64,000 nucleotides of DNA, taken from positions 48,236,001 through 48,300,000 of the forward strand of contig OX597830.1 of NCBI GenBank assembly GCA_951406725.2, in the 5' to 3' direction. Made by a program: the position numbers and the translations under genes. Shown here piece by piece: positions 2,035 to 63,109 of the stretch (position 1 is the first letter of the stretch; the number at the start of each line of letters is the position of its first letter). This stretch comes from Octopus vulgaris. Its lineage: Eukaryota. Under the pieces are notes generated by a model. That model was not told where the DNA came from. It saw only the letters and a list, made by a program, of their open reading frames with translations, and made no database searches.

Positions 2035-2292
2035 CGTCTCCATACTTGGTCGGCACAGATCTTCTCAACTGATAAAAATGGGTTTTATATTCTCTTATTA
2101 GCATCCTCTCTGTTGAGTCTTCTTCGTATAAAATACAGCTTGGACTTATCGTTCTGTTCACGAAGGATTTACATGCAGAAGTTTCAAAACAACTCTTCGA
2201 ACAGTTGAAGGCATCCACGTCAAGTGTCATCAATGTTTTGGCATCTTTCAGACCGGCGTTTGGTACTTTCATAAAATACTTCAGATATTCAA
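2035..2292 (-). CDS. Copy A coding exon 3, PAN/apple-like domain 1; the gene presumably continues beyond the window start
   Basis: 258 nt, intact splice sites, open frame, CSKSCFETSACKSFVNRTISPSCILY. Confidence 0.85.
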
Positions 2293-2849
2293 CTGTAACA
2301 AAGCCAGGCAAATTTAACAACCAAAATACGAAGACGAAAATAAAACATTGTGAAAATAGATAATAATAAAGATAGAAAATATTAAATGTTTGAGGATCAG
2401 CATTGATATTTTTACCAGGAAGAAGTGACAGAGTTGTTACTACCATAGTGTAGGTACAAAGCATCTTGGGATATATAATCTGTTTAATGAAAATGACTGC
2501 GAATGAGTCTTTAATGTTGTTTAATTAATTCTATTATTTAAATGATTCACAAGTTATATACTATAATGTTTAACGGTTGTCTGTTGTAAAGAATGTCCCC
2601 TAATACCAGCCCTTTGTTTTATTTAACAAAATGCTTACAAACTGACGTAAAACTGAATTATCACCAATGGAAATTATGTTAAGAATCGAATTCTTCATAA
2701 TACGAGATTTATCTTGATTCTTCTTTTCATCTAATTTACTTAGAGAAGGAAAATATTTTCCTCCACTGAACTTATAAATTAATGTTTTGAGTAGTGATTT
2801 TCATAATTTTCATAGATATATGTCTATATATTGATATAAATTTACTTAC

Positions 2850-2885
2850 GTCCATTTCCAAATGTCAGTGAGATGTAGAAGAGAA
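2850..2885 (-). CDS. Copy A coding exon 2 (FLFYISLTFGNG)
   Basis: Identical to copy B exon 2, with intact splice sites. Confidence 0.75.
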
Positions 2886-4077
2886 CTGCAACGAAAATTT
2901 ATTTTGGTAAAAAATTTCATATTTCATATTCACGTTTAGCATTAATTTACAAACAATAAAGATGAAAGGAATAAGAAAGAAAAGTGCTACAAGCATAATT
3001 CAGTAACAAATACGGCAATGACCACCACTACATCACCATAAAATTATCCATTGAAATAATGAGTGAGAGCGACAAATTGGAGAGGGATAGAAAGAGATGG
3101 AACATAAGAGAGAGGGATAGGAGAAGTGAGGGTGAGATAAAAAGAGAGAGGAGCAAAAATAGAAAAAGAGAAAGAAAGAAAAAGAAATGTTATTTGTTTC
3201 AAACGAGATTAGAAGCATCAGTATTTCTTGGAAGAGAACATTCTAGACACTTCAGAGACTTTAGTGAAAGTATTACGTATAACTTGTTCGTAGAATTAAC
3301 CACCTTTTTATAAAGGCGAGTCACCACTTTTATAACGGGTTGATTCTATCTTATTTATAGAGTGATTATTCTCCTGAGTAGACTTTTCTAAGTCCACGTC
3401 GGCTTGTCACCAATATATAAGCTTGTGTTGGATAATCTGGTGTAGAATGTTTTTGACTTGGAAAAGATAATAAATATAGATGTTTACTGAGTAGAAATCT
3501 ATAGTGATAAACCGGTCACTTATAACTTAACTATAAGTGTTATCACTATACATAAATCTTAACTCAGGCTGCGTAAGCACCGTGATGAATTATACACCAA
3601 GACGCTGAAATGTACATGTTGAAAGGTCACCGCCATAATAACAGTTTCATGGATACAGAAATAAATCTCATTAACAGGTTGAAGAAAATGAAGAAAGAGA
3701 AATTATTTACTAAATTAGTTTAATTACGTACATTTAATATTTACAGTACATTTAGAAGTCAAAGAAAATTGTCGTAGAGAGTTACGACATAAAATTTATA
3801 TTAACTAATTCTTCCATACGAAACTAGCAGAGTTTTACACAACGATTCAAAATAGTCCTGTTGGATTTAAGTAATAGAGATGGCATAAAAATAGCCAATA
3901 TCTCAAGAGCGGGAGTGTCGTGGAAATGAAGGACAACCAACGAACACTGAGGGTGAGTGTCGTGGAATCTAGTGACAACCAACGCTCCCTGATTAATTTT
4001 TATCTCACTGGACAAGGGATAGGCCTAGTTCAGAAGATTTAGGTCATGTTAATATTCACCCATTTTATATATATATG

Positions 4078-4110
<33 letters not shown>

Positions 4111-4117
<7 letters not shown>

Positions 4118-4910
4118 TAAAAGAAATAAAACATATGCATATATATAAACATATATGTACGTACCTACCTCTACATGTACATATACACGCATATATGAGT
4201 ACAGGACACCAAAGGGACGTCGAACACATAGAGAAACGAAAACATAGACACAAACCAAAGGAACAGGACATTTTTTTAAAAACAACAAAAAATGGAGTAC
4301 AGGACAGTTAACACAACGAAAAAACCCCTTCTTCAGTCGCTAAGGTTTCATCTACTCTACGTTTCGAAGGATAAAAGCGAGACGTATCTTCGACAAGAAA
4401 CTTTCCTTCCTGCGAAAAGCAAATCAATTAAAATTCTGAGATCTTTTCGCAGAGGGGTAAAAAATGTTTAAAAAACGGTAAAAAAAAAACGAGACAGTAA
4501 CGACAGTACAAAAATATAAACAGTAAAAAAAATATATATATAAACTGTAGAAAAAAAAAAAATTATATATAACAGTAAAAAGACAGGACAGGGAGAACAA
4601 GATAAGAAGGGCTGTTGACGCCGAACGAAAAAAGTATTGCAAACGCTAATTTTTTGTGAACGACGAGAGAGCAGGAAAAGTCGTCCAGTAGCCTTAAAAG
4701 GCGGGCGAGAAAGACCGTTAGCAGTTACGGCGGAAGTATCGTCGCAGATGGACGACGGGAATGGGGGAGGAGGAGCAAGAGGAAGGGAGAGAAGAAAGGG
4801 AATGGTGCGAGGAGACCATGAAGAATGGTGAGGGGGAGAGAGAGAATGAAGAATGAGAGAGAGGAGGAGACAAGTTAAGTGAGGGAAAAAAGACGAAAAG
4901 GGGATGGGAT

Positions 4911-4945
<35 letters not shown>

Positions 4946-5545
4946 GAGCAGAGTGCGCGTGAGAGTTAATATCAAGGCGAACTTGATATACAGAACAATC
5001 TTACTTAAGAGGGTGCGTGCGTTTAGTCGTATAATATATTAATAAAAGAAATAAAACATATGCATATATATAAACATATATGTACGTACCTACCTCTACA
5101 TGTACATATACACGCATACATGAGTACAGGACACCAAAGGGACGTCGAACACATAGAGAAACGGAAACATAGACACAAACCAAAGGAACAGGACATTTTT
5201 TTAAAAACAACAAAAAATGGAGTACTGGACAGTTAACACAATGAAAAAACCCCTTCTTCAGTCGCTAAGGTTTCATCTACTCTACGTTTCGAAGGATAAA
5301 AGCGAGACGTATCTTCGACAAGAAACTTTCCTTCCTGCGAAAAGCAAATCAATTAAAATTCTGAGAGCTTTTCGCAGAGGGGTAAAAAATGGTAAAAAAA
5401 CGGTAAAAAAACGAGACAGTAACGACAGTACAAAAATATAAACAGTAAAAAAAAAATATATATATATATATATAAGGAAATGAAGAAAATTTTCTTCATT
5501 TCCTTTCTTTATATATCACAACTCGTGTTCCACATCTCCTTTTTT
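4111..5545 (-). mobile_element. Left-arm-specific insertion in a (TA)n tract with two ~430 bp direct repeats (4111-4540, 5036-5465); probably a Penelope-like pLTR remnant
   Basis: Absent from the right arm, which has only (TA)n at ~23430-23508. It shows tandem partial repeats, CGAAACGTA/CTGAAGA words on the - strand and a perfect 32-bp palindrome at 5474-5505. Confidence 0.55.
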
Positions 5546-5894
5546 AAATATATATATATATATATATATATACATTTATATATATGTATATATATATATA
5601 TAGATATATAAGCATGTATGTATGCATGTATGTATGTATGTGTATGTGTATTTGTGTATGTATGAATATATGTATACATACATATATGTATATTCATTTG
5701 TAATATATATGTATAATCATGTGTATATATATGTGCATACATATAAAAACACACATACACATATACATACATACATGTATAATTGCATAAGTTGGAGTAA
5801 TAAGAAGGAATACGAAGGCACATTTATTTGGAAACCCTACAATTGTTTCCACGCACCGCAGTCTTTCATTTTGGCAGGAATTTGGTTATGCATA

Positions 5895-7996
5895 ATTTGG
5901 TTAAACATAGACTCCAAAACAACATGATGTCTATCATCAATAGTCAGCGAAGAGCTGAAGAGGCCTGGGCCATTGAGAATATCAAACTCAATCCCAAAGT
6001 GTTCTTTTCATTTGCAAAAATACACAGAGTCATTGATTCTACTGTTGGCCCTCTGATTGATGAAAATGGTACTCTTCAAGACAATGCCAAAACCATGGGA
6101 GAGATATTGCAGAAACAATATTGCTCTGTTTTCAGCAATCCTGATATGACTGATCTGGGATGTATCAGTGATGTTAATCCCCAATACACTTTATCGGGCA
6201 TAACCTTTGGCGCTCCTGATGTCTTAGCAGCAATAAAGGAAATGAAGCATAATTCAGCAGTAGGTCACGATAGGTTCCCTGCTTGTGTCTTGAAGATGTG
6301 TCAAAACCAACTTGCACCCCCTCTAGCCAATCTGTGGCGGAACTCGCTGGATGCTGGATATATACCAGAAGACCTTCTATCCCAGTCTGTTGTCCCAGTT
6401 TTCAAAAAAGAAAACAAATCGCTTGCCGTGAATTACCGTCCAATCTCACTCACCTCTCATATCCTTAAGGTATTTGAGAGAGTGCTGAGATCGCGTATGA
6501 CTCACTTCCTTGAGAGTCATAATATGCTGAACTCCAACTAGCATGGATTCCGTAATGGGAGAGATTGCCTGACGCAGCTACTGCATCATTTTGATGACAT
6601 TTTGAGAGCCTTGGGAGAGGGTTCCAACACTGATGTCATCTACCTTGATTTCAGCAAGGCCTTTGACAGGGTTGATCATAAGATCCTTCTGAGAAAGCTG
6701 TCCAATATTGGTGTCACTGGAAAGCTGCTGCAGTGGATCAAGTGCTTCCTGTCTAACAGAACCCAACATGTTGTAGTCGAAGAAGTCAAATCCAGCCCAG
6801 CCAAAGTCAGCAGTGGTGTCCCACAAGGCACTGTGTTGGGCCCACTTCTCTTCATCATCTACATAAATGATATTACTGACACCATCAAACACAGTAACAT
6901 CAGAACCTTCGCTGATGATTCCAAGCTCCAGAAGGTCATCAATGGCGTGGATGACCGAATAAACCTTCAGTCAGACCTACTGGGTGTTGTCCAATGGGCG
7001 GAAAAGAATAACATGTTGCTAAACGAAGACAAATTCGAACTGATCCACTTTGGAAGGGAGGATGCTCTGAAACTCCCATACTACCTTCCTTCTGGAGAAA
7101 TTCTCACGGCGTCCAACAACATTAGAGACTTGGGAGTAACAGTGGACAACAACATAAGCTGGGCTACACATATAAGCAGCAAAGTTGACATGGCCCGCAG
7201 AATGTGTCCCTGGATTCTCAGAACCTTCCAGTCAAGAGATTCCCACACTATTTGGGCACCGAGGCCCATTCGAGCAGAGAGTTATTGTTTGCGGAGACAT
7301 ATCCGGGTGTGGGTGGTTTGTCCGGGACTGTTATCCTTCTGTTATCCTTCTGTTCTCCTTCTATTATCCTTCTGTTCTCCACTTTTGCCCACCCCACCTT
7401 GAATACTGCTGTCCACTGTGGTCTCCCTACACAAAACAAAATATTATGAGAATTGAAGCTCCCCAAAGGTCAATCACAAAAAAGATAGATGGCATGTCAG
7501 ACCTTGACTACTGGGGTACACTAGAGAAGCTGAAACTGTATTCACTCCAACGACGCCGTGAACGCTACATTATCTGTATGATGTGGAAAATATTCCATCA
7601 GCACTGTCCGAATGATGTTGGCATCACCTTCAAAATACATCCAAGGCTTCGACCACGTGCCATCCGTCCACAACAAAAATCTAAATCGCATCACATAACG
7701 ACAATACGGCACAATTATTTCATCTCAATTGGACCCGCTCTCTTCAACATTACACCAGGACACGTCAAAAAAGAAACTGACCACACAAAATTCAAGAAGT
7801 CTTTGGACAAATTCCTTCAAACAGTCCCGGACAAACCACCCACACCCGGATATGTCTCCGCAAACAATAACTCTCTGCTCGAATGGGCCTCGGTGCCCAA
7901 ATCCTGAATTGAAAGACTTCGCCAGGTGGTGCTATTAAGTTAGATATGGCCTGGGCCAATACTGGCCAAAACATTTCCAAGTTATTCTAAGTTATT
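5895..7996 (+). mobile_element. 5'-truncated CR1/L2/jockey-group LINE (reverse transcriptase), disrupted
   Basis: NYRPISLTS, DFSKAFDRVDH, SGVPQGTVLGPLLFIIYIND, FADDSKL and PHLEYCCPLWSP motifs; in-frame TAG at 6539; (CYAAGTTATT)2 3' tail; CATA on both flanks; empty site in the right arm near 23120. Confidence 0.93.
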
Positions 7997-8842
7997 CATA
8001 CGTTTCTCTGCATTGAGAAATCTTGTTGTGTCAACGGGTCGTCTGCATGTAACGTTATTAAAATATAGTCACATGGCAATCGTTCCTTGTGATACTCAGT
8101 GGTAAATAAAATATTGATTAATTGGTATAAACTGGTATTAATAAAGGAGTATTGAGGCAAAGGAACTTGTTAATTATATATTAAGAAAATTATAATCTAA
8201 GCAGGTTTTTTTATAAGTAATGAATATACCAGTATATTATGAATTTATAGAGATACAAAAATTAGAATTAATTTTATAAATAAAGGCTAATTATAAAATA
8301 ATAAAGAAATGCGATAAATGATCAAGTAGGGCAGAACACCATAGAAAAGGAAATAAAATAACTTAATTACTAAAACTTATGGTAAAGCATATGTAGCTTA
8401 TTAACACCAATAGAGAAGAATTTTAGAAAAAGTATAATAATTCAAAATATATTAGACTAAAAATTATATATTTACTTATTTAGCTAATATCAATAAAAGA
8501 CAAATATCTGGTATCAGCTAATAAATCATATTTTACACTAATGTTTTCTTTTTAAATTAAGCGTTATATCATAGATTTAAGAAGTTAATATTGTTACTCC
8601 CTACATGATATTTATAGTTTCTTAGTTGTACTTGTTTAGAAGGGTTATTTATATAAAGGCCCTTGTCAATACTAAGATCAGTAGGGTAGAGCCATTTAAG
8701 AAAGAGATAAATCAAGTAATTTCTTAAGATCTTTTCAAACAATATTGTCTTGTTGTATTAAGTTAAAATTTAGGGTAATCAAGAAGATTATTAAGAATGA
8801 AATTTTAACATAAGGATAAAAATTCTTTGAATATTTGGAGTA

Positions 8843-9361
8843 CCGTAAATCCTCGAGTATAGTCCGCCATTGAGTATAACACGCAGGGGATTTTTGTGGT
8901 GGGGGGGTGCTGTACATCTGAAAAACCTAAACCTTGTGTATAATATGCACTCCTTCTCTAACTTGAGTCAAGGAGGTCTATATAACGTCCTTGGTTTGTA
9001 AAAATGTATATGGTAACGTCCTTTATTATTATTGTATATATAACATAGTGGGAACGTGTAGTATTTTTATGCATTTTGCTTTCAGAAAATAAAGAGATAA
9101 CAGTAATAACGTTTAAGAAATGTTGCTTACTGCAAGTTATGGATGATTCTTTTATGACTTCATTGCTTTCAGGTTTAGCTTAAGGTATTTTCACGCCCGA
9201 CATCACAAAAGGCGTCTGATTAAACATAGCCAGAGAGCAAATAGAGACTCTGACATAGCTTAGAAAATAATTTTCATTTTTAACCTCGTATATAGTACGC
9301 AGTAGGTATGTTGATCTTTAGATTTTAGGAAAAAATGCGGATTATACTCGAGGATTTACGT
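8843..9361. mobile_element. MITE with CCGTAAATCCTCGAGTATA TIRs and TA flanks (right-arm copy 21919-22262 is internally deleted)
   Basis: ~25 bp terminal inverted repeats flanked by TA, no ORF. Confidence 0.7.
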
Positions 9362-9562
9362 TATATACCAAAGTTTTACCACAATAGAGAGAGAGTAGAA
9401 AATTGCATTACTTTTGAAAATCCTTGTTGCTTATTTTGATTTTAATCACCTTACTTTGAAATTGTATGGATAATACGGTACTAAATTCTGGTCCTTCAGC
9501 TTAAGTACCATATTCATGTGAATCTAAATTTTTGCTGAACTCATACATATATATATATATAT

Positions 9563-9603
<41 letters not shown>

Positions 9604-9699
9604 TATATACAAAATGTGTTCTTGTGGGGTCTCAGTCGTGATGGCTAAATTCTTCAATAATTAAAAGCATATTAATTATACAATAAAACATTTACTTAC

Positions 9700-9730
9700 A
9701 AATAATTCGAAGATAATTCCTCCTCAACAT
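9700..9730 (-). CDS. Copy A coding exon 1 (MLRRNYLRII)
   Basis: Reverse complement of copy B exon 1, with intact ATG and GTAAGT donor and a Q-to-R change. Confidence 0.72.
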
Positions 9731-19368: not shown

Positions 19369-19415
<47 letters not shown>

Positions 19416-21306: not shown

Positions 21307-21379
<73 letters not shown>

Positions 21380-21438
21380 TCTGGTGATCTTATGCCATCT
21401 CAATCGTTAAGTCAACACCTTTCCACCAGGAGTATCTT

Positions 21439-21474
21439 TATAAAGTGTATTCAATAGATACAAACACTTCAGTT
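21439..21474 (+). promoter_or_regulatory. Putative core promoter of copy B (TATA box and initiator)
   Basis: TATAAA at 21439-21444 and TCAGTT at 21469-21474, with the A 32 nt after the first T of the TATA box; both motifs are kept in the left arm. Confidence 0.5.
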
Positions 21475-21607
21475 GTGGAATACAATGCCAGCTAATAGCG
21501 ATAAATCGATACGAATTTCATATAATGATTATCCTTCATTAAGAAGATAAATTCAAACAAGTAACATCTCGTTCTTGACAGCTATTTCTACCTAGAAAAC
21601 AGACAGG

Positions 21608-46529
<24,922 letters not shown>

Positions 46530-46637
46530 TGGAATTCACCCCAAAATTATTTACTTCTCAATGAAATGTGAGCAAGACTTCAACGGATCACGTTTGCTAA
46601 TAATAATTATATAAGATAAAATGTGTATTTCTTCATA

Positions 46638-46643
46638 AATAAA
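46638..46643 (+). terminator. Polyadenylation signal AATAAA of copy B
   Basis: About 110 nt after the stop codon and followed by T-rich sequence. Confidence 0.5.
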
Positions 46644-47049
46644 ATCAATTTAATTCAGTTATTTCTTTTGTTAATTTATTTTTATTGCTAACGTTTTTCC
46701 TTTTTAGTCTTCTCTTAGAAATCCATTCACACTCTGGATGATTTATAAGATTATTAAATTTACCCGAGTACCAATAGAACACTTGGGTATTATTTTATCA
46801 ACCTTCAAAGAAAGAAACAAAAAATTAACCTGAAAGCGTTGGGGGTCATAACTAAATACCACAAACCGAATTGTAACACTTCTTACCCATAATCTAAATA
46901 ATATATCAAATAAAAGGCTTGCATTTGGCTGATTTCTGTTGAGAAGTGAAAGGATTTGCAATTCAACCTAAAAAAAAAAACATAAAAGGCCAACAAATTG
47001 TTTCGAATTATATATATATTTTGATATACATACATAATAATAGTTCCCT

Positions 47050-47132
<83 letters not shown>

Positions 47133-47137
<5 letters not shown>

Positions 47138-47343
47138 ATCCAAGCATGAAAACACAAAGCGAAAACATAACAACGCGAGGACGTGGAACAAGTATAGTAT
47201 TATTGGACGCTCAGGAAAGGAAAGAAAGAAGTAGGTTTTAGCGTTTCGAGCGTAGCTCTTCGTCAGAAACATAGGAAAAGGAAAGACCCAGAGAAGGGAA
47301 GACGGAGGAAAAAAATCGTCAACGGTACACACGCGGTCACATT

Positions 47344-47350
<7 letters not shown>
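47133..47350 (-). mobile_element. Penelope-like pLTR remnant in (TA)n with a hammerhead ribozyme core
   Basis: The - strand reads CTGACGA-A-GAGC-tac-GCTC-GAAACGC (47241-47266). Confidence 0.65.
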
Positions 47351-47392
<42 letters not shown>

Positions 47393-47476
47393 TTATATTA
47401 AATTAGAGACAAAATTGGATTCAATCCTAAATCTGATTTTTCCCTGTAAATTTGGATTTATTCCCTAATATTTATT

Positions 47477-47557
<81 letters not shown>

Positions 47558-47572
47558 ATATATATATGTGTG

Positions 47573-47638
<66 letters not shown>

Positions 47639-47899
47639 TATGTATATATATGTATATATATATATATATAATAGGAATGAAAATTGCCTATCTTTCACTG
47701 ACTCATCTGCTTAATACACTTTTCTTTAATTAAAATTGATAATTTAAGTTAAGTAAACACTGAACAGAATATGAACACGTATCAGTTTCTTTATCCTTTT
47801 TTTTTCAACTATTTTTTGAATAATTATTATTTAAAAACATTGACTAAGTTTTTATTAAGAAATATTTAGTCAAAAATATGAAAGCAATGGAAACCTATT

Positions 47900-49101
47900 G
47901 GGAACAGCATCAATTGCGATGAGCTACGTCCCTTCGAAAAGCTAACATTCTTCCACAAGGGAAATAACTCTAGCATCAATAAGAAGGGAGATAACACAGG
48001 GTTGGGTTTTAAAATTTATACACTTGGCCCAACGATATAAACTCGTGAAGCAAAACAAAAAAAGGCATAAATTACTTTTGCTCAACGCACAGGTTATTGG
48101 CAATTTCATGTATGTTTTTGACGGATTCATATATACGTACACCTGTCCAGTGGATGTTAACATAAACCTGAAGATCAGTGAAAAGAGGGATTACTAACGC
48201 TGAACTATTGAGAAATCTGCAGTTACTCTATCCAGATTACAATTCAGGATTTATACCTGTAATTATTGGGGCCCTGGGATATGTAACACACTGCTTAAAT
48301 ATCTATCTTGAGAAATTAAGCTTCTCAAACGCAGATAAGAGAAAGCTAATTCAGAGACGACAGATCCAATCCATCACTGGAACTGTAAAAATCTGTAAAA
48401 CTTTCCAAAATTCATCATTTATATATACATGTACATGTCTATATATGCAACTATATGCATGAGAATGCATACATAAGTCAAAACATACAAATCTGCACAT
48501 ATACATACATACAAACAAAAATACCCTGTTGTTGATGTTGAAATTCCAATGAAGGAGCCTTGAAACTAGGTTAGAAACCGGCTCTTTCTCTATTAGCAAG
48601 AAATCTTGAAACAAGCCATAGCCACTCATAATGAAAAGGAGTAGTGGTGGATTGTCCCAGTGAAGATCTCAGGAAAAGGTAAGCACAACAGACTTGATCA
48701 AATGGTTTGGGTTTGAGAAGAGAAACGGTGCAGAGTCGTGGAAATTAGATGCCCATCGGATGTTAACATAAAGATCATTGGAAAAGGGAACACCTACGCC
48801 GAATTATTGAGAAATCTGCAGTTGCTCTATTCGGATTACAAGTTCAGATTTATACCTGCAATTATTGGGGCCCCGGAATATGTAACACTGTTTAAATACC
48901 AATATTGAGAAATTAGGCTTCTCAAAAGCAGAAAGAAGAAAGCTAATTCGAAGGCGACAGATCCAATCCAACACTGGAACTGTAAAAATCTGCAAAACTT
49001 TCCAGAGGCTTATTTAAATATATATGATCGTTTCTAGATGCAAGTATATGCATTGGAATACATACATACATACATACATACATACATACATACATACATA
49101 C

Positions 49102-49132
<31 letters not shown>

Positions 49133-49900
49133 CATACATACATACATACATACATACATACATACATACATACATACATACATACATACATACATACATA
49201 CATACACGCAAAAATACCCTGTTGCTGATGTTGAAATTCTAATGAAGGAACTTTGAATGTAGGTTAGAAATCAGCTCTTTCGCTATTGACAAGAAATCTT
49301 GAAATAAACCTGAACTATGACATACAAAATGTGAAGCTGGAGATAGAGTGATGTTTGGTGAGAGAAAGTGTTCCCCCTTAACGAGTTGAAAGCTGTCAGT
49401 GTAATTCTGGGGTTTCTGTTTCCTTGTGAACCACTGAGAGTATAGACAGCATCAGAGATACTGCATTCTATCAGTGATAAAACAGTCACTCCTTGTATTT
49501 GACTATGCTCAGTGGAACTTTAGCAAGTCGAAGGGCTTCTAGCATCCACACCAGAGGAACAGATTCAAAAATTTTCTTGTAGTCTAGCCAGATTGAAACT
49601 AGGTTCTTTGTATGCTTCCATACCTCTGACATTTCAGTTTTGTTGATTAACAATTGTTCGGCACATCCCCAGACTCTCTTCTTTCCAGCTGCTTGTTCTA
49701 CTACAATGATGTTTAAACATGCTGTATATATTTTATACATTAATTTCTAGCATGCAATTTGGCCGGTAATTTTTGCCATGTTGGTGGTTTTGCATTTAGG
49801 GATCAGTTTTGTCTCTGCCAGAGCTAACCAGTGTGATGTGCTACACTTCCCATTGAGAGCTTGTTAGTAAAGATTGATAAGATATATTTGGTAGGTTAGC
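47900..49900. mobile_element. Two tandem 3' ends of a Dong/R4-type LINE (+) plus an RT fragment (-); a related 3' end lies at ~40080-40500
   Basis: YAELLRNLQLLYPDY..F.PVIIGALG...QSITGTVKICKTF occurs twice (48140-48620 and 48750-49320); GCAEQLLINK and WLDYKKIFESVP on the - strand. Confidence 0.8.
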
Positions 49901-49994
49901 ATTTGGTACCAATATCTAACAATCAAGTCTCTTCCAGGTGCTTTTCCAGCCTGCACTTTCTTGATAATATATCCGAGAGATCAAGAAAACACCT

Positions 49995-50355
49995 ATCTGC
50001 TCTGCACTGGGCTCTTCTCTGTGCTCTGCTCTGCTCTGCTCTCTGCTCTACCCTGCTCTCTGCTCTGCTTTCTGCTCTATGCTCTGCTCTGCTCTCCTCT
50101 GCTATGCTCTTCTCTGTACTCTGTTCTGTGCTCTGCCCTCTGCTCTGTTCTACGCTCTGTGACCTGCTCTCCTATCTGCTCTGCTCAGTGCTCTTCTCTG
50201 TGCTCTGCTCTGCTCTCCTCTGCTATGCTCTTCCCTGTACTCTTTTCTGTGCTCTGCTCTGTGCTCTTCTCTGTGCACTTCTCTGTGCTCTGCCCTGCTC
50301 TCTGACCTGCTATGTGCTCTACTGTGCTCTCTCCTCTGCTCTCTGCTCTCTGCTA
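49995..50355. repeat. Degenerate (CTCTG)n/(CTCTGTG)n simple satellite
   Basis: Visible directly in the sequence; it generates the spurious Leu/Cys/Ser ORFs. Confidence 0.95.
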
Positions 50356-50810
50356 AATCGTACCTAAAACCCAACATTGCAGATGCAGAAATACATCTAA
50401 CAAAGTATGTTGTATTGCGAAGCGATAGAAAGACAAGAGCCATAGTGGAGTTTCAATTTGTATCCGTGAAGACCTCACGCCCCAGATCCTTTTGTCGCAC
50501 TCAAATTCTGTGTGAGACACACTAACTGTACATATAAGACAACTTGGCATAGTCATATGTACTACATGTCCTACACTAGACACTCCAAATCACATGGACC
50601 TATTCGAAGACTGTCTTGCAAGAACAGAAGAGGTCTTAACCAAACTAGAAGAGCACAGCCGTGTTCTTCTCATGGGAGACTTCAACCTCCCCAATGTGGA
50701 ATGCTTTTTCCTCTGAGAAAACGTACGATGTGAGCAACGTCATTTGGAATCCATGCTCAAATTCACTGACAAGTTATACTTTGAGCAAATAATACTCGAA
50801 TCTGAACTAT
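50356..50810 (+). mobile_element. CR1/L2-type APE endonuclease fragment
   Basis: LKPNIADAEIHL..Y.VLRSDRKTR, HSNSV and LLMGDFNLPNV motifs. Confidence 0.7.
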
Positions 50811-50989
50811 CAGGAAGCAGATTGGAAATCAGTTTAGAAAGAGATCACCCAACGGCACTGATCCCAATGAAACGAAAATTGAGGAGTAAATGCGAACGGT
50901 CTGCAAGCTAATGACGTCATAGCTAAACGGTCCGAATATAGTGAAGGCTATAAATATTTGTGCAGTATAATTGCTTAGATTGACAGCAG

Positions 50990-52020
50990 CTTTTGTAGCT
51001 TGGACAAAAGTTGAATTAGCAAAGCTAGACAGAAGAACTAGGAGGAAATTCGATAGGAATGAAGGACTCCACCAAGGCAGGAGTTACAAGATTATACCTA
51101 CCTAGAAAGGAAGGTGGAAGAGGGTTAATATCAGTGGAAAACTGCGCGGAGTTAGCTAGAATAGATATAGATTCTTATGATGTAGGTAATAGTGAAGAAA
51201 GATTATCAAGAGCTACTAAAGTCGCAACGAGACATAGGGAAACAAAGCGCTAAATGAAGTTAAAAACGAGAAAAATGCGCAAAAGTTGTCTGACTGGCAG
51301 GAGAAGGTGTTTCATGGTAGATTCCCGAAGATACTTACAGCAAATAGTAATAGTGGGACATGTTTGTAGTTTCAGATAGGAAGGCTGAAAAAGACGCAGC
51401 ACAAGATCAAGCGTTGAGGACGAATTAGATAAAAACTACGATAGACAATAACCAAGTTGGTTCCCAATTTCGGTTATGCAAATCAAAAGAGGAAAGTGTG
51501 GCATGCTGGCAGAGAAAAATATAAGAACAGACATGACAACCTATGGAGAGTAATCCATTTGGAATTATGTAGAAATCTAGGATTTCGCCATACTCATAAA
51601 TGGTATGAATATGAACCTAATAAAGTACTAGAAAGTAAGAAATATAAGATGTGGGACTTTCAGACGAACAGAGCATTAGAAACCTGAAGGTCTAAGCAAA
51701 GTGCCAGATAATTGACTTACAGTCCCAAATAATGAGAAAGTCAATATGAGAAGTAAAGAAAAATATCCAAGTACCAGGACTTAGCCATTGAATAACAGAG
51801 ACAAGGGAAAGTGTAAAATTAATCCCAGTAGTTATAGGTGCATTGGGAACCATCCCTAAATATCTGAACTGATAGGTAGAGAGAATAGGCGTGAAACCCA
51901 GTTTAGAACAGCTCCAGATAACAGTGCTATTACGGACTGCTAGAAAACATAGGAATGTTCTTGGCATCTAAGGTTTCTCTGCCGTATGTTCCAGGAAGAC
52001 ACTCAGCAATAATAATCTCA
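50990..52020 (+). mobile_element. Dong/R4-type LINE 3' half, degenerate
   Basis: RLYLPRKEGGRGLISVE, AAQDQAL, YKNRHDNL.RVIH, WDFQT and IPVVIGALG motifs. Confidence 0.8.
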
Positions 52021-53196
52021 TGGCATCTGATCGTAACTGACTGGAAGTGTCATCTTGTACATTGTTTTGTCCAGGTATAAAAAGATGGGCTACAGCAAAT
52101 ATTCTGCTCAATATCACAGATTTGCTTGTCGGTTGTTTGATCTTAAACAGTTGAGCATGTCATTTAATGGCTGACAATATGGGCACCTCTTGAAAGATGT
52201 GTGTTTTATTCATCATTCTTAAACAAACCTTATTCAGGGACCTTTTATATCTGCTTCCGTTGTTTTGTTTTATTGATTATGCGGTAATCCACCCCCACCC
52301 CACTGGCCTTATCCTTGTCCTCATCCCCATCATCATCACCATCATCATCACCACCACCACCATAATCACCATCATCATCTTCGTACCTGTGTGAATCACC
52401 ATCGTCTTCATAGTAGTTAGGATACTGCTGCAGCTGTTCCTACTACTATAACTACCACTACAACTAATGATGATGATGATGATGATGATGACGATGATGA
52501 TGATGATGATGATGATGAGGCCCTCCTCCCCACCAATGACGCAATACAAATATCCTTCAGACCAATATAAAACAGACGGCGATGTCGAGAAAATATATTT
52601 TTACAATTTCCTCTCAGGCACTCGACACTCAACGATTCGCTCTGCAGTTTCAAGACTTTCAACGTTTCAAAATGCTCAAACTATTTCGCAGGTTGTCCTC
52701 CATTTTTGGTAAGCTAAATATTCTTACATTTCTCTCCACGCATTCCCAGTTTTCTTTTAAAATCAAACTCAATGGCAGTTTTAATGTGTTCCATAATAAT
52801 ATTTAGTGATTGTGTATAAATACGATGTTTTCTCTATAAAATGATTCTGTAGAAAACTAGCGCTACACGAGGAAATTTCACAATCATTTCCAAAATGATA
52901 AAATTGTTGGAATCCTGTAAGAAAACCGCAAAAATAAAGAATTTCTTTGGAAATTATTTCTTCTTTTTATCTTTTACTTGTTTCATTCATTAAAGTGTGG
53001 CCATGCTGGGGCACCACCTTAGAGAGCTTTAGTCGAATGAATCGGCCCCAGTTCTTATTGTTTTATAAGCCAGGTACTTATTGTATCGGTTCCTTACTGT
53101 CGGACTGCTATGTTGCAGGGATATAAATATGCCAATACTGCTTGTCACATAGCGATGGGGGACAAACAGACACACGCACACATGTATATATATATG

Positions 53197-53323
<127 letters not shown>

Positions 53324-54060
53324 ATATATATGTATGTATGTATGTATATATATGTATGTATGTATGTATATATATAATTGTTTTGCAAGGTTCTTGATGT
53401 GAATTCGTTTGTTGAAACAGATGTTGTATTTGGGGATGTCATATTGTCAGTTTAGCCAATGAAAATACATGCACTATATATTTGGTGCTCGCTTACTTCA
53501 GCTTTATTTCATATTAATCGTATTTCGGCCAGAGTTCTTTCGTCACACTTCTGTCACCTCATCAGTGATCCTTTGCTTTCTTCTTTTCTTTTTAGTGGCT
53601 CTCCTTCCTAACGATCTGCTATTTTGTATTCCTGTTGTATGTGTCTTTATTTGCGCATGTGTATATCCCTGTGTGTGTGTCTATGTTTTGTAAGTGTGTG
53701 TATGGTAACTGCATTATTCATTATCAGTATCCCCTGTTTATTCACGTTCGTTTAATTAAATTTTATTTTACTTTATTCATTTGTTTTTATCAGTTCGAGG
53801 GATTTCATGAAATCGATTTTATGCATTGAAATTTCTTTTTTCTACAAAAAATGTTATGAATGTTTGTTCCTTAAACTTGAGTGTGATAGTATAGATATAT
53901 ACATTTTTATGAATATGGTTCTATAAGGAGACTTATGATATATGTTACCGGCGTCGCTGAGGTAAGGAAAAACATTATAAACGATACCACTAATTGACAC
54001 GTTATTAATTAGCGGAATAGCAGCATAGCCTTGAAAAAACATGGATTACATGCAAAATAT

Positions 54061-55113
54061 GTGAGCAAGAGAAATAATATTCTTAATTTAAATTCAAAAT
54101 ACATTGAAAGTCAACAATGTTTGGTTTAGAAGCGATGAGATGAACTGAAATATACGGAAATAATTTTATTCTCAAACGCAGGTTAATGCTAATAACATAG
54201 CACGAATAGGATAAACTATCCATATTTCTTTAGAAAAATCTGTCGTTGGCCAGCCATGAGACTCGAACTCACATCCCTGCGATTACCAATAAGTTAAACT
54301 GCCCAGCGACGAATTATTTTGCAATTTTAGGATGTATAAATCTAGCTTTAAAAGACGCTATCGTACGTATTATACAAAATAAGTTGAAAGTCAAGAAACA
54401 GAATATGGCTAATTTCTCCAGTTCATGCTATATTATTAGCATCACCATGCGTTTGAGAATAAGATTATTTCTTCATCTGTATGATAGCGTCTTATAAAGC
54501 TAGAAGTAAATATCCGAAAATTGGAGAAGAACTTGTCGCTCGGCAGTTTAGCTTAATGGTAAAGCCCTTACCGCGTAGTCATAGGTATGTGAGTTCGAGT
54601 CTCATGGCTGGTCGCCAACAGATTTTTCTACAAAATATGGATAGTTTATCCTACTAAGGCTATGTTGTTAGCATTATCCTACGTTTGAGAATACAATTAT
54701 TTCTTTATCTCTATTTTTCAATATCCTTAAGATTATAAACTTGAAAAATTACAGGACAAGTTATTACACCTGGAAAAGTTCAAGACAACTTATTATATAT
54801 GGTAAAATGCATAAAAAAATTACTTAAAATATTGCAGCTAAGGATAAAATGTGAATATTAAAATTTATTTGATTTTGATAAAAAAAAAGGTATTATCATT
54901 TTGTTAAAATATTGATACACTTGAATACAGAAAAACAGAAGTCCCAATAGGCGCAGGAGTGGCTGTGTGGTAAGTAGCTAGCTTACGAATCACATGGTTC
55001 CGGGTTCAGTCCACTGCGTGGCATCTTGGGCAAGTGTCTTCTGCTATAGCCCCGGGCCGACCAATGCCTTGTGAGTGGATTTGGTAGACGGAAACTGAAA
55101 GAAGCCTGTCGTA

Positions 55114-55172
<59 letters not shown>

Positions 55173-55868
55173 GTGTGTGTGTGTTTTTGTGTCTGTGTTT
55201 GTCCTCCTAGCATTGCTTGACAACCGATGCTGGTGTGTTTACGTCCCCGTCACTTAGCGGTTCGGCAAAATATACCGATAGAATAAGTACTGGGCTTACA
55301 AAGAATAAGTCCCGGGGTCGATTTGCTCGACTAAAGGCGGTGCTCCAGCATGGCTGCAGTCAAAATGACGGAAACAAGTAAAAGAGTAAAAGAGAGAGTA
55401 TATAACTAAAGCTTTATACAAAATAAAATAGTATACATGGTAGGCAAATTCCTCATGTGAAAAATAGGCATCAAGACTAAAAATGGGAAGACTTGGCAAT
55501 AACTCAGGCAATAACTCCAGCAAATTTTACTGTGGATTTGTAGTTATAGGTAGATTTTACAGCAATATATAACTAATTTTGTATTGTTCTATTTATTGTA
55601 CTAATTATATTCTACTATTTTCAACATTCTAATTATTAATTAATAATTTAAAAAATGAATATGTTTTAAAGTGCAAAAAATATTTTGAGTTATTTTTAAT
55701 TTTTCATATAAGTAACACGCACACACAAATAGAAGTAATAACCTGTAATGAAATTTTTAGTTTTAATAAAAGCTAATATTTTCTAAATCCAAATATTTTC
55801 ATGTCTAATAACTTTTCCTGTAATTTTCCAGGTTTATAATCTTAAGAATATTATTTCTCTTGCTCGCA
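54061..55868. mobile_element. Foldback/nested inverted-repeat element containing inverted tRNA-like units, interrupted by a SINE
   Basis: Inverted repeats 54157-54366/54479-54706, 54719-54777/55796-55853 and 54061-54087/55842-55868. Confidence 0.6.
54950..55392 (+). mobile_element. Full-length tRNA-derived SINE (octopus-type); fragments also at ~13010-13385, 44570-44785 and 52965-53110
   Basis: GGCGCAGGAGTGGCTGTGTGGTAAG A-box, GGGTTCAGTCC B-box-like motif, central (TA)/(TG) tract and ...GAAACAAGTAAAAGAG tail. Confidence 0.85.
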
Positions 55869-55907
55869 TTTTCAATATAAATATGTATGCATTTATGTTT
55901 GTATGTG

Positions 55908-55960
<53 letters not shown>

Positions 55961-57011
55961 ATATGCGCATACATGTATTTAGGTATGTATGTGTATGTAT
56001 GTCCGTCTGTATGTATGCATGCGAGTATATATGTATGTATTCGTATGTATGTATGTTTGTATATGTTTGTGTATGTGTGTGCAGATTTGTATATTTTATG
56101 TATGTATTCTCATGCATATAGCTGCATATCTATACATGCTCATATATGTTTAAATGATAAATTTCTGGCCAACTGTGAATACAGAATATGGTTTCAAATA
56201 ATTAAATGTCTGCTTGAGAAGCAGTAAAATCAATGACGGAATCGATATAATGTTGATGAAAAAGTACAGAACAAGTTTTTTACAGCTGGGAAAAGCGCGG
56301 GACAAGCATATTTGTATTTAAAATATTGCAGCTGAAATTAAAATTTTAAAATTCTTAGATTTATAAAAACTGAAAATAATAGCTTTTATTAGCTACTCTA
56401 TAATTAAAAACTTAACTCAAATAAAAACTGTTAGCAAAAACTAAAACAATTTTTATAGCCCCATTAAAAAGGATTTTTTTTCAATTATAAGTATTTAAGA
56501 ACTTCAATAAGTTTTTAAATAGTTTTCAGTTAAAATTCCTATTTTGCTCATCTTTTTGATAAAAAGTGTCACACTGCAATTCACTGATAAAAATATCATA
56601 AGGATGGTCTTTTGGAAATTTCAAAAAAGTCTACGGTATGGTTGTCGCAGTGTCTCGAAATAAAGCGAAGGAGAATGCAAGAAACCTGTGCAATGGCACT
56701 ACCAGAAGAAACAGAGGCACGGAAAAATGTGTACCAATTGAGAACAAAGAAAAGCCGTGCAATGGAAACACCACAAGAAACAGAAACACGGACAAATACT
56801 GATCGGCTGAAGAAACAGGACTCCAGGGAAAACACGACGCTGCCACAAATTCAGCAGCGACAAGCAAACAAACAACTAGGTACGATAGCAATGGAGAGTT
56901 GGTCAGCAAAGAACTGGCAATGAGAGAATGGCTACGGAAGATGATGTGGCAGATTTTCATGAGAAAGAACGAAACCCAAGCCTTATGTTGCACTATCCAT
57001 CCCGATATCAT

Positions 57012-59825
57012 CACTTCAGCCTGCTCAATCTGATGGGTATCTAAGAGATCAGCAGTGAATTTTTTGCTCTCTTTGAGAATAGAGTGAAGTTTTTTTGGTC
57101 TTTCATGTTTTCCAACAAGTTTTAGCATCCAATCGTTGGTTGCTTCGAGGTATTTGGCCAGTCCGATTGTGGTGGTTTTGTATGTAAGTTCAAGCTGGAT
57201 CAAACCTCGACCTCCCTGAGCTCTGGGAAGGTAAAGGCGATCTTATTGGTGCATCTTATTGCAAGTCAGTAGCTTGCGGATTTTTCTGTCAATTTTCATT
57301 ATTTCACTGGTATTCCAGTTAAGCACATGGAAACTATAAAGAACAACTGGTACTGCTAAGGAATTTATGGCTAAGACCTAATTATATGCATTCAGCTCAG
57401 ACTTCAGGACTGCTCCAACTCTTCTATAACATTCTTTCCTAACCTTCTCTTTCATGCTTGTATGCTGGATACTAGAGCCTTCATTTATTCCTAGGTATTT
57501 ATAGATTTGTTCCTGCTCAAGTTCCTTTATTACTATTTCGACATCTAATTCAATTGAACTAGACTTTACCAATTTCCCTTTCTTAAAAGTGGCTTTGGCA
57601 CACTTTTCAAGGCCGAACTCCATCCCGATATCATCACTGAATCCTTTCACAGTGTTGTAATAATCCTTCAAGCTCTTCATCATCTTTGCCATATAGCTTT
57701 AAGTCATCCATATAAAATAGATGGCTTTTTTTCCTGTTGTCAATTTTGTAGCCATATCCTGTTCTATTCAGTTCACTTGAGAGTGGTATTAGTGCTATGC
57801 AGAAAATTAGTGGTGAAAGTGAGTCACCTTGGAAAATTCCACAGTTTATGCTAATGTTGTTTGAGTGCAATACTCCATTAGAATGATATAATTGGAGCTT
57901 CGTGTTCCATAGTGACATATTATACTTTAAAATATCTGAAATCACAGGAGAAATTTTGAAAATGATCAGTGATTTCAGAATCCACGAATGTGGTATTGTC
58001 AAAGGCTTTTTTATAATCAATCCATGAAGAGCTGAGATTTCTGCGCTTGTTATGGCAGTTCTCAAGTATCATGCGATTAATTAGGAGCTGATCTTTGCAT
58101 CCGTATGAGCCTCCTCGGCATCCTTTTTGTTCAGTGGGAAAGAGGTTATTCTCTACCATAAACGTATATGTTTTCTCTACTAGAATAGATGTCAAAATCT
58201 TACAGGTAGTAGATAAACATGTTATAGGCCGGTGGTTTTTTGGGTCTTTCGTTTTGTTATTTTGGGGGAGGAGGTAAGTAATACCATTTACCATCCAATG
58301 TGGTGTTTTTTCCGGGTCTTTCATGATACTATTAAATAGTATTACTAACATTTTGTGTGCGGACGAGAGTGATGAGAGCCAGAAATTTGGTAGTCTATCA
58401 ATACCAGGGGATTTCCACTTATGAGCCTTCGTTAGTGCCCTCCTTAGGTCGGCGATTGAGATGTCTTCCCATACCTGTTCTTGTAGATTTTTTTAGGCAT
58501 CTTGGGTGCGTTTGATCCACTCTGCATTTTCATTGTATGGTTTCTCATCACTCCAGATCCCATTCCAAAGGTTTTCAATTTCTTCCATTAGGGGTGGATT
58601 TTCAATGGTTACTTTTTCGTTCCTTATTTCCCTGTAAAATGATTTGGCATTGGATTTGAACATATTTTGTTTGTAGAATTTGATTCTTTTCTCAAATCTG
58701 CGTATTCTCTGAGCTTTTGCTTGAACTTTTTGTTTAAGTGTTTCTTTCGCTGACATTAGTTCTTCTCTTGTTGAGTGTCCATATTTTCTCACAATCTTCC
58801 TGCCTTTTCTTGATCTTACATCATTTACAGAGATTAGCTCAGTTAATATTGATATCTCCCTTCGCAATGATTCAATTTCAGTTTCAATTCTACTCCTCCA
58901 GTTTGATTTTCTTTTCGAATTTGGTATTATTGGCTTTTGGGGTATTAAACAACGTCTTTCGATTACCTTAGCGACAGAGTAAATAATTTCATTGAATTTA
59001 TTAAGATCGGGTTTTAGTTGTTGTATGATTTCTTGTGTAACGCAGTTGCCAATTTTTATTTGTGTTTTATGTTGGTGTGCATTTGAGAGTTTATGGAGTG
59101 GTTCCCTATCATTCATAGTTGCATGGCCTACAACTGCAAGCTCATTCAGAACTTCTTGCTTCATTTCAATGATAGATTTTCTGTGTTGTTCAACAAATAT
59201 GTGGTCTTCAAATTCTGTTTCGACATCATTTTCCGGGCTGTTTTTCTAGGGTCATTATATTTTCCTTCTTCTTCAGGATCTTGAGTCGTTTCGGCAGATG
59301 GTCGCCTTTCAGTCAATGCTTGTGGCCCAACATGCCTCTTCTCAGCTTCGTTATTTCTTTCCTGACTTACATTTAAGTCATTCTCTACCACGTTTTTAAT
59401 AGAGGTTAATTCTGCATCTGTGAGTCTGACATTTCTGAAGATATCTCTTCTAACATTTGCTAATCTGTTTTCATCCAGGTTTGGTCTGCTAGCTGGATTC
59501 CGGCTCTTCCAAATTCTGTAGGAGTTTGCGGTGTGTTTTTCTTCGGTTGGCCTACTTAATGCAAAGTAATAAGCATATGTTACTTCTTTATATTCTTCCC
59601 GGTTCCATTTAGTTCTTTTACTTTTTTGATTTTCTGGTCGTTGTGGTGGTGAACTTTAGGGGCTTAATTTGGGACAAATCCCGTTTAAGTGACCTTCCAG
59701 GTTCGAATTCGGGGAAGATATTCTGCCATTTGAAATTTTTTTGCCATCAGGCTGGCAGCTTCCTTTATAACCATTGGACAAGCGATTCGGTGTACTGTTA
59801 AAAATTTTCTTTTCAAGTAAAGTTA
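57012..59825 (-). mobile_element. Dong/R4-type LINE, close relative of 41537-44025, retaining the 5' end
   Basis: [58 protein letters not shown] and HLFYMDDLKLY motifs, with frameshifts. Confidence 0.92.
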
Positions 59826-59983
59826 AATTATTAAGTATTCATTAAAAAAATAAATAAATAAAATAAAATAAAATACGAATAAAAGATTTATTGCTGCTGC
59901 TACAACTACTGGGGCTGCTACTGTTGCTACTGATGATAAAAGAGGCCCTCTATATGAAAATTAGTGGTTAAATCTTATTACTA

Positions 59984-60039
<56 letters not shown>

Positions 60040-60062
<23 letters not shown>

Positions 60063-60621
60063 CCTCTCTTTTAGCACCACAATATTATCACAATATTCAT
60101 GTCTATTAAAGAGTAGAAAATTTATCTATTTATTATTTCTCATTATTCATAAATAATAAAACTATACAACGTGAAACAGTTCCACCACCATTACGAAAAA
60201 CTACAAAAGACAACATTGATTTATCTATTTTCTTCTTCTTACAGGAAGATGTCCTTTAGATTTTATTGACAAAGCTAGTATACCTTCGAGTACCTTTGAT
60301 AGCTTGAGTTACTTTACTGACATCAGTTACACGAAATGTCTGCTTCGAAGATCATAGAACTGCTGAATTGCGTTTTTACAAGGATTGGACTTACACCGAA
60401 ATAAACAGAGGTAAGGGCGTCATTTTCTTGTTTTTATTTATTTATTTTGTTGGAATTATACACAGTCAGTTGGACAAGACTAAGGCACCACCTTCAAAAA
60501 TGTGTTAGTCTGTTATATTGAGGTCAGGACTTTGATTTACTTGGCTCTATCATTGGTTAAGTCCAACGTCATATAAAGGTACGGACTCAATACCAAATTA
60601 GATAGATAGATAGATAGATAT

Positions 60622-60690
<69 letters not shown>

Positions 60691-60775
60691 CAGACAGATA
60701 GACAGTTAGATAGCTAGGTAGATAGATAGGCTGACTGACAGACAGATTGACAGAGAGACAGACAGACAGACAGAC

Positions 60776-60816
<41 letters not shown>

Positions 60817-61101
60817 CATACATACATACATACATACATACATACATACATACATACAGATGCATACATACATACATTCACGGATGCATGCATGCATACA
60901 TACATACGTAGATACATACATACATACATACATACATACATACATACTTGCATTCATACATATATAGATGCATGCATGCATACATACATAATACATGTAC
61001 ACGCACACACTCATGCGAAGAGTTAACTACTAAATACTCGATGAACAAGAGGGATAAAGATAGCCCCAAACCTCCATGCTGTGATGAAAAATGTCGGCTC
61101 T
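60040..61101 (+). repeat. Direct duplicate of ~38900-39926 (exon 4 with flanking intron and microsatellites)
   Basis: Shares the acceptor region, the post-exon intron, the (GATA)n/(CATA)n tracts and the ...actcgatgaacaagaggga...gtcggctctg end. Confidence 0.92.
60245..60410 (+). pseudogene. Frameshifted paralogue (copy C) of PAN exon 4
   Basis: Same acceptor and donor context as 39073-39303. Reads RCPLDFIDKASIPSSTFDSLSYFTDISYTKCLLR, then an internal deletion, then DHRTAELRFYKDWTYTEINR. The length of 166 nt is not a multiple of 3 and gives a TAG in frame. Confidence 0.85.
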
Positions 61102-62095
61102 GTGGAAGATATCAGTCCTAAGCAATGCTGATTTTTGTAAGTGTTCTATATTCACACTTGCAGCAGTCTTTTTCAGCCATGTTGGCAGTTCAGTGTTGAT
61201 ATTTCCAAGTGCACCAATTATAATTGCTATCAATTCTCCTCTCTTCATTGGCCCCAACCTTCGTATTTCTCACTTCAAATGGTCTTCACCTTGATCCTGT
61301 TGTCACCCGGGCATGCTGTTCCCATTTTTATACATGTTCTTCCATATAAAAATTCACCATAACGATGTCTGGTTTCTGATATCTGGTCAGGTGATTTCCA
61401 TGGATCATTGCATCTGACAGGATTTTGCAATTCTCATTTTCGATGACTCCTTCAGGCGTTTGCTCAACGTCTTTGCTCTTTGTAGGCCGTGATTTCCACA
61501 GAACTCCTAATGGGTTATTCGTGCCACATCGTCATGGCATCTTTTGTATAAGCGTTGTGTCAATTTTGGGCATATTAGTGCTTCTGTCTCTATCTTCAGG
61601 TCACTCCTCCTCATTCATAACCACCGGTCCTCTCTGTACCTGTCTTGGCGTTCACATCTCTTGCAAAATGACCGTACATTTTCTTTACCTTCGATGCTTT
61701 TTCTTTTTTCGTTCATTTTTTTGCTTAAAGTTCTCTTTAGTTACACAATTTTCAGTGTCGATGATGCCATCTTTCCTGTGTTTCAAGAATGGTTTCACAA
61801 CATTTTGTATATTCCACCCTAGGCTGTTTTTTTTTTCTGCTTCGATATAGTCCTAGTACCTGATCAAGCCACTCCCACACTTTCTTCTAGACAAGTGTCA
61901 CTTTTAGGGTGGAAAGCTCTGTGCGCTGTCAAAATGTTTCTGGTCTTGGTATTCTTCATTTCTCTCTTTTGCCATTTTATAATTCCCACTCCATACCGAA
62001 GTGATGCTATCGCCCACGTATCGACTGCTTGGATTTTATTCTATCCAATCAATTTTGAGCGCAACACCAACCTCAGTCGTCTGAAATACTAGGGC
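61102..62095 (-). mobile_element. Dong/R4-type LINE 3' fragment, degenerate
   Basis: RPDIVM, IIIGALG and LQKSALL.T motifs. Confidence 0.7.
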
Positions 62096-63109
62096 CCCTA
62101 GTCTGTCTATGAAGATAGCTTCCTCATAGACAGACTAGGACCCCAAATTAACAACATGCTGGTTATTTTCAGCCAGTATATTATTCAGCTACATCTGGGT
62201 GCGTGTATAGCGGTATGGCTACCAAGTTTCTCTTATGTTATATTTTATAGCATATATTTTCTAGTTAGTTTGTTTACAGTTAATGCAACGCTACTTATTA
62301 TGTTTCCTATTTGGAAATAGATAAAATTATTTAGCTTTTAAAGTAGGGATATATAATGATAAGACCGTCACTTATAACTTAAGTGTTATCATTATACGCA
62401 GTCCTAACTACAGCTATATAAATGCCGTAGAGAAATATACTTTCTGGAACGCTAACGAACATTAGCGGGCATGTATATTAAATATATTTTCGTGTTCTTT
62501 TGACCGCTATAAAAAGTACAGTTTAATAATTACAGAAATACATTTCATATATAGTTTAAGAACTTCCTGCATGGATGGTAGTCCAGGGATCATTCTCAAA
62601 TTATCTTCAGTTCATTTTTTTATCGTCCCAAGTGCTTCTACAATCACTGGTATTGTAACCGTCTCGTGATGCCATCTTTGCTCCTACTACTGTGTAGAAT
62701 TATTAAATATTGTTTAGTTTCGACTTTTGTCTTGTACTTGAGATTATCAAAAATATGTGAGGGCTGGAGGTGATAGTAGGAGAAAGAGGAGTAGCTTAGG
62801 GGTGGGGCGGATTTTTTTGAATTTTCCTTTCCTTTCTTTTAGGTTTCGCGAGTCGGACATCTTTACAGAAGTTTCCTCATTTAAACTTGCAGTTTTGATA
62901 CAACCATTTGGTTTATTTTTGTCTTGTTTTTTCTTAATCTTAAATCTATTATTCAAGAAGGATATTGTCATTTTAAGAACACAAGTGTTTGGAACTGAAT
63001 TGGAACTGGTTATATGATAAAGAGCGTGGTTGGATAGCTTAGAAATTCCTCTCAAAATCGCGTGACCCTAAAACACAGTATTTTCGGCTAGTACATTTTA
63101 CCATCATCT

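Follow-up and report, generated by a model that had tools for sequence, protein, structure and literature searches.

A family of three-PAN-domain genes around the locus

The window, the whole 64,000-nucleotide stretch of Octopus vulgaris DNA analysed here (contig OX597830.1, positions 48,236,001 to 48,300,000), holds copies A, B and C of one gene family. Copy B provides the reference gene structure, and copy A lies partly in the window on the opposite strand:

2030..9730, minus strand: exons 1-3 of copy A, a member of this family with its exon 4 (L003) to the left of the window
21608..21638, plus strand: first coding exon of copy B, with the beginning of the predicted signal peptide
24685..24720, plus strand: copy B exon 2, remainder of the predicted signal peptide (read against P0001)
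25266..25523, plus strand: copy B exon 3, first PAN domain
39073..39303, plus strand: copy B exon 4, encoding an intact PAN_1 domain (E 7e-10 against Pfam PF00024, better than the cut-off)
45732..45827, plus strand: copy B exon 5, linker; a paralogue transcript splices at 45827
46333..46529, plus strand: copy B exon 6, third PAN domain and stop

The exon at 39073 was rightly called exon 4 in the initial annotation, being the fourth of the six coding exons of copy B. These six exons match an O. sinensis protein of 280 aa (P0001) whose layout runs from a signal-like start through PAN, PAN and a linker to a final PAN. Exon 4 of copy B comprises one whole PAN/apple domain (PF00024, 39.1 bits against a cut-off of 21.4), and exons 3 and 6 also exceed the PF00024 cut-off. 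It is bounded by AG/GT borders in phase 1-1 and carries a cysteine core at residues 2, 29, 33, 39 and 51. The predicted structure of this middle domain follows a strand-strand-helix-three-strand order with a pLDDT of 62-89 over the domain; outside it the full-length model is poor (mean pLDDT 46), and a model of the domain alone (pLDDT 70) found no fold match with an E of 0.001 or lower.

Our search for exon 4 homologs returned 26 matches among 83 candidates, every one located on C17 and with an open frame; searching at the DNA level brought in copy C and a second such copy, C′. Judged from sequence, the octopus has a tandem family with some 28 genes, which encode three-PAN/apple-domain proteins predicted to be secreted. 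Transcript support came from one of four RNA-type runs, in which a paralogue's contig joins exons 4-5 and 5-6 at the predicted donor; the other three runs yielded no spliced contig over exons 5-6. For the copy C stretch no RNA data set was listed, which has no bearing on whether it is expressed. All relatives with a name belong to octopods (O. sinensis, O. vulgaris, O. bimaculoides and Argonauta, the last at 36%), and an Atlas look-up returned PAN clusters only. O. sinensis LOC118761179 and LOC118766713, O. bimaculoides LOC106868906 and LOC128249715 and Argonauta hians P0013 belong to the same family and have the three-PAN layout. Several second PAN domains (PAN2) of octopod proteins named "Apple domain-containing" are identical to paralogues in this genome, and PAN2 is 96-100% identical to the O. 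sinensis orthologue in six of seven cases, which is more in keeping with a maintained repertoire than with ongoing sweeps in the older clusters.

The layout of the locus has been reworked on a larger scale. Window positions 1832-14966 and 16262-25727 form a large inverted duplication with arms 85-100% identical, which places copies A and B head to head. Two further stretches, 42388-44033 inside intron 4 of copy B and 57014-59177 upstream of copy C, are 89-92% identical and hold reverse-transcriptase-like reading frames; we take them to be LINE-like, and they may have served as recombination substrates.

Copy C is a disrupted exon-4 copy

Copy C consists of a single exon with recognizable intron flanks, within a larger duplicated block:

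23500..62846, plus strand: block with most of copy B plus copy C; a duplicate, 93-99% identical, lies 83-90 kb downstream (G000:C17:48343.9-48388.6 kb)
60123..60244, plus strand: intron sequence preceding exon C, 86-87% like that of copy B and closest to paralogues L009 and L008
60245..60410, plus strand: copy C exon 4 (middle PAN/apple domain), a pseudo-exon, by alignment
60411..60603, plus strand: intron sequence following exon C, differing from 39304-39495 at 8 places
60604..61102, plus strand: TAGA/TACA microsatellite and a 78-nt tail, the tail 91% like 39851-39926

The initial annotation had reported an exon far more diverged than the intron that follows it, and this is what we find: exon C shares with copy B 13 of 31 residues ahead of the break and 12 of 20 beyond it, against eight differing places in the downstream intron. 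The figure of about eight is itself accurate (six substitutions and two one-base indels over ~190 nt after the donor). It left out the upstream intron, however, which is much less similar (16 differences over 113 sites), so that the downstream intron by itself understates the background divergence; the downstream flank of exon 4 is also the most homogeneous flank of the family (diversity 0.04-0.09). By alignment, the 166 nt of exon C equal the 231 nt of exon B plus 6 minus 71. The added 6 nt are the in-frame two-codon indel proposed earlier, here an insertion in copy C, and the missing 71 nt are a frameshifting deletion at about 60346/60347 that removed Cys33, Cys39 and Cys51, the three cysteines that a later deletion had been thought to take. 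As described earlier, the exon ends are kept, with intact splice sites, and so are Cys2 and Cys29.

The deletion was checked, as had been proposed, in independent sequence data. In a comparison of four public DNA runs, contigs of X1, from study P1, and of X4, from study P3, read across it without a difference; a contig from run X3 crosses it too, reaching just 30 letters on one side, and among the contigs listed for run X7 there is no spanning one. Further, the twin copy C′, ~90 kb downstream, carries the identical deletion. An assembly error is ruled out by the spanning contigs from two studies and by this twin. The exons of C and C′ are identical and their flanks differ by ~2%; the shared deletion would then predate the duplication that produced the two copies. 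X3 and X7, which are labelled as other organisms, also contain contigs that match 60240-60346 with 0 and 1 differences, respectively, and whose loose ends at the break, read by eye, run on in frame with the missing cysteines. These undeleted ends indicate that the distinctive sequence of copy C is older than its deletion, and we infer that copy C was a working exon-4 variant until then. The search for an intact paralogue with a copy-C exon that the initial annotation had called for gave none in this assembly, in which a 26-base pattern allowing up to two mismatches matches only C and C′.

Duplication of the 23.5-62.8 kb block gave rise to C′ and to g13 (L002), the twin of copy B. Exon 4 of B and g13 differs by five replacement and no silent changes, and their flanking introns by one difference in 292 sites. 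C′ is followed by remnants of exons 5 and 6. At 62846 the window copy lacks ~5.3 kb present in the twin (G000:C17:48388635-48393951), where it includes a truncated exon 5 and an exon 6, and copy C is for this reason a lone exon here. No exons 1-3 were found between the last exon of copy B and copy C, or before C′. Given this arrangement, C-type exons could be an alternative 3′ cassette (exons 4-5-6) that is spliced to exons 1-3 of the upstream gene, and the intact splice sites of copy C and the remnants behind C′ would agree with such a use. We consider this quite improbable, as it requires read-through of the terminal exon of copy B and was seen in no transcript, and loss of the 5′ half of copy C by rearrangement explains the layout equally well.

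Support for diversifying selection on exon 4 across the family

Family-wide, amino-acid change in exon 4 runs at roughly three times the rate of silent or intron DNA. In 55 pairs drawn from 11 young genes (the old-type genes g1 and g4 were left out here and in all other young-gene counts, and g7 from this comparison only), dN is 0.229 in exon 4 and 0.063, 0.040 and 0.059 in exons 3, 5 and 6, while fourfold sites of exon 4 differ by 0.088 and its flanking introns by 0.090. A tree-free comparison of eight disjoint close pairs gave the same picture, with pN of 72/1395 = 0.052, pS of 7.7/408 = 0.019 and intron divergence of 25/1493 = 0.017. Replacement sites exceed both silent sites (p = 0.004) and introns (p = 1.5e-7), whereas silent sites and introns are alike (p = 0.67), and dropping the most divergent pair leaves p values of 0.034 and 4e-5 for the first two contrasts.

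Codon models written for this analysis gave an overall omega of 1.49 for exon 4. For 12 genes, M2a was preferred over M1a with a 2dL of 42.1 and placed 31% of codons at an omega of 5.3; with 27 sequences (C′ left out) the site test reached a 2dL of 103.7. Recombination inflates this test, as 25 of 52 simulations with recombination and no selection passed the nominal 5% level, and we therefore dropped the nominal chi-square p values. None of the 52 simulations reached a 2dL of 42, however, the maximum being 29.3. Taken together with the excess of pN over pS and introns, this supports diversifying selection on exon 4 at the family level, robust to recombination, and agrees with the earlier proposal that the exon is under selection. 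Exon 6 shows no such signal (omega = 0.43; the second exon-6 copies of g3 and g12 were left out). In exon 3, which encodes the first PAN domain (25266-25523 in copy B), omega exceeds 1 at a few sites (2dL = 33.9) and recombination has been heavy; either exon 4 is not the sole target, or the recombination in exon 3 misleads the site test.

Raw Nei-Gojobori estimates make exon 4 look less unusual, with a dS of 0.23, a dN of 0.25 and an intron divergence of 0.096 over 120 pairs, and dS = dN = 0.36 between B and C. We ruled out plain Nei-Gojobori dS as a neutral clock because the majority of silent steps occur where the amino acid of the codon changes as well; of the 8.3 such steps between B and C, just 2 are in codons whose amino acid stays the same. 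Silent change in exon 4 is about twice as high in the core (0.116) as at the ends (0.060). Of 45 codons that differ within close pairs, 16 have both versions present in other paralogues, so part of the recent change is recycled. In the structural model, the 16 selected sites would lie in strands and loops with none in the helix, an avoidance that is not significant (p = 0.08).

The initial annotation had concluded that copy C diverged under selection and then died. The order of events is borne out by the undeleted C-type ends in X3 and X7, but selection on the branch of copy C itself is not shown. The branch has an omega of 0.99 unmasked, and with six codons around the insertion masked it has a dS of 0, a dN of 0.056 and a 2dL of 2.3, which is not significant. 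That copy C underwent its own adaptive burst before dying would fit the masked branch, on which all changes are replacements, and the existence of an undeleted C-type exon in X3 and X7. It nevertheless seems rather unlikely, since copy C is an ordinary tip in the family tree and the stem to copy B is longer (0.78, against 0.25-0.51 for copy C; the two are not sisters).

Conversion or recombination probably homogenises the rest of the gene

The genealogies of the exons are unlinked, and conversion or recombination acts on the family. Pair distances in exon 4 are uncorrelated with those in exons 3, 5 and 6 (rho 0.07-0.14), and for exon 4 the intron tree is worse by 77 log units than the exon's own tree (C′ left out). 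Diversity is 0.08-0.13 upstream of exon 4, 0.02 in its last 18 nt and 0.04-0.09 downstream, and recombination is also detectable within the exon (p = 0.015). Silent divergence in exon 4, estimated by maximum likelihood under the better-fitting models, is 0.15-0.17 against 0.094 in introns, or 1.6-1.8 times as high.

The same mosaic is found across species. Between the O. bimaculoides proteins P0003 and P0009, PAN1 is 88% alike and PAN2 43%; in PAN2 the two resemble different genes of this genome, each at 75-76%. AU tests reject a single history for the two exons: they exclude that P0003 groups in PAN1 with the orthologue it has in PAN2 (p = 0.004) and that the two O. bimaculoides PAN2 domains join each other (p = 2.8e-5); the result concerns two O. 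bimaculoides genes only, the PAN1 grouping has moderate support (73-88), and the mis-joined models P0004 and P0011 were left out of the trees. This comparison indicates that exon-4 lineages outlive speciation while exon 3 is homogenised or reshuffled. Within the octopus genome, g1 (L026, G000:C17:47937800-47949900) and g4 (L024, 48032100-48044400) have an old-type exon 4 with 39% protein identity to copy B and a dS of about 1, surrounded by exons 3, 5 and 6 that are 88-97% identical to those of B. This reflects either a whole-exon cassette swap or homogenisation round exon 4.

Conversion alone might leave old, neutral or relaxed exon cores between recently converted introns, and several observations agree with this: the equal dS and dN between B and C, the exon dS above intron divergence, the near uniformity of the downstream flank and the last 18 nt of the exon (0.02-0.09) relative to the upstream flank, and the conversion seen across species. 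The initial annotation had set such conversion, ending at an old exon with dS as high as dN, against its own reading, and this mechanism is present in part. In close pairs, however, silent sites equal introns and only replacement sites run ahead; fourfold sites match introns, 25-26 of 26 copies retain their cysteines and reading frame, and the observed 2dL lies above all 52 recombination nulls. Something must, in addition, still halt conversion at the exon core. Conversion without positive selection is thus an improbable explanation, and conversion adds to selection rather than replacing it.

Targeted hypermutation and templated segment exchange have been proposed for some venom genes. Aimed at exon 4, either could generate many multi-base codon changes of the kind we observe, along with the internal recombination and the excess of exon dS over introns. 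It would also be expected to raise silent sites in close pairs, where they are not raised, and it fits poorly with exons of C and C′ that are identical while their flanks differ and with the near-identity of orthologous PAN2 to O. sinensis. We regard such a mechanism as very improbable.

We favor, with a probability of roughly 0.7 (0.72), the reading that copy C is a dead exon-4 copy of a tandem three-PAN family in which exon 4 is likely under diversifying selection on a binding surface, and recombination or conversion homogenises the flanks and the other exons. In a review of such families, conversion and unequal exchange are described as homogenising tandem genes unless selection keeps differences, which lifts silent divergence there (Ohta 2010, PMC3966226). 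In the octopus family, conversion and unequal exchange would likewise even out all but the regions where selection keeps differences; selection would block conversion in the exon-4 core, as in the Ohta/Innan model, and the retained differences would also raise silent divergence in exon 4. The family further shows the birth-and-death pattern invoked earlier, with near-identical young pairs alongside C, C′ and stops in some linker or PAN exons.

Possible function and comparison with known systems

According to a snail genetics paper, PAN/apple domains mediate protein or carbohydrate binding (PMC13712769). The middle domain of the octopus proteins likely sets ligand specificity, for a glycan or a protein, with binding being predicted. 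The only solved structures that match the exon-4 profile are the apple-domain lectins MIC4 of Toxoplasma (4a5v, E 2.3e-7) and SML-2 of Sarcocystis (2yil, E 3.9e-6), a match that spans only the cysteine core; sugar binding in the octopus would be a candidate property. SML-2 with a galactose analogue is also among the top fold matches of the middle domain, all of which are weak (best E 0.05).

Evidence for the toxin, immune or gamete role typical of families in which exons outpace introns was looked for and none was found in this analysis; in the main text of two cephalopod venom preprints, PAN or apple domains are not mentioned. As a guess at slightly less than even odds, the proteins serve surface or mucus recognition of microbes or parasites. 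Gamete or egg-coat recognition is distinctly less likely, on a par with some other role altogether, and a part in saliva or venom a little less likely again. A bolder possibility, which we hold to be doubtful, is that octopods carry an undescribed MHC-like recognition repertoire: ~28 secreted three-PAN proteins with a homogenised frame, in which symmetric exon-4 cassettes of old cross-species lineages, swapped by recombination, would set binding, and haplotypes would differ in their live cassettes.

Exons that outpace introns are already known from snake toxin genes and from the families of Ohta's review. Snake three-finger toxin genes (PMC2474615) share with the octopus family the similar introns, divergent exons and fixed cysteines but have a different fold. 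The review (PMC3966226) describes human RHD/RHCE exon 7, vertebrate protocadherin ectodomains, immunoglobulin CDRs and insect serpin exon 9, each with one divergent region, some rise in silent change and a homogenised remainder; the octopus family differs in consisting of separate secreted genes rather than alternative exons of one locus. The process is thus a known one, and the family itself is undescribed in the open-access literature searched, where we found no analysis of the function, expression or evolution of these octopod proteins (preprint supplements were outside the scope).

The pseudo-exon is ordinary in itself, yet it leads to a sizeable octopod family in which one domain clearly bears the mark of diversifying selection. 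Molecules of immune, gamete and prey recognition are poorly known in cephalopods, and the three-PAN family is a testable candidate that comes with a built-in experiment, namely proteins with common domains 1 and 3 and a different domain 2.

Weak matches to P0001 (26-38%) at G000:C10:23.4-24.7 Mb, C13:76.17 Mb and C17:26.4-26.6 Mb suggest older related PAN gene clusters, and distant three-PAN proteins are present in O. bimaculoides and Argonauta. Finally, exon 6 is tandemly duplicated in g3 and g12 (G000:C17:48021811/48022583 and 48330310/48331079), possibly providing alternative last exons.
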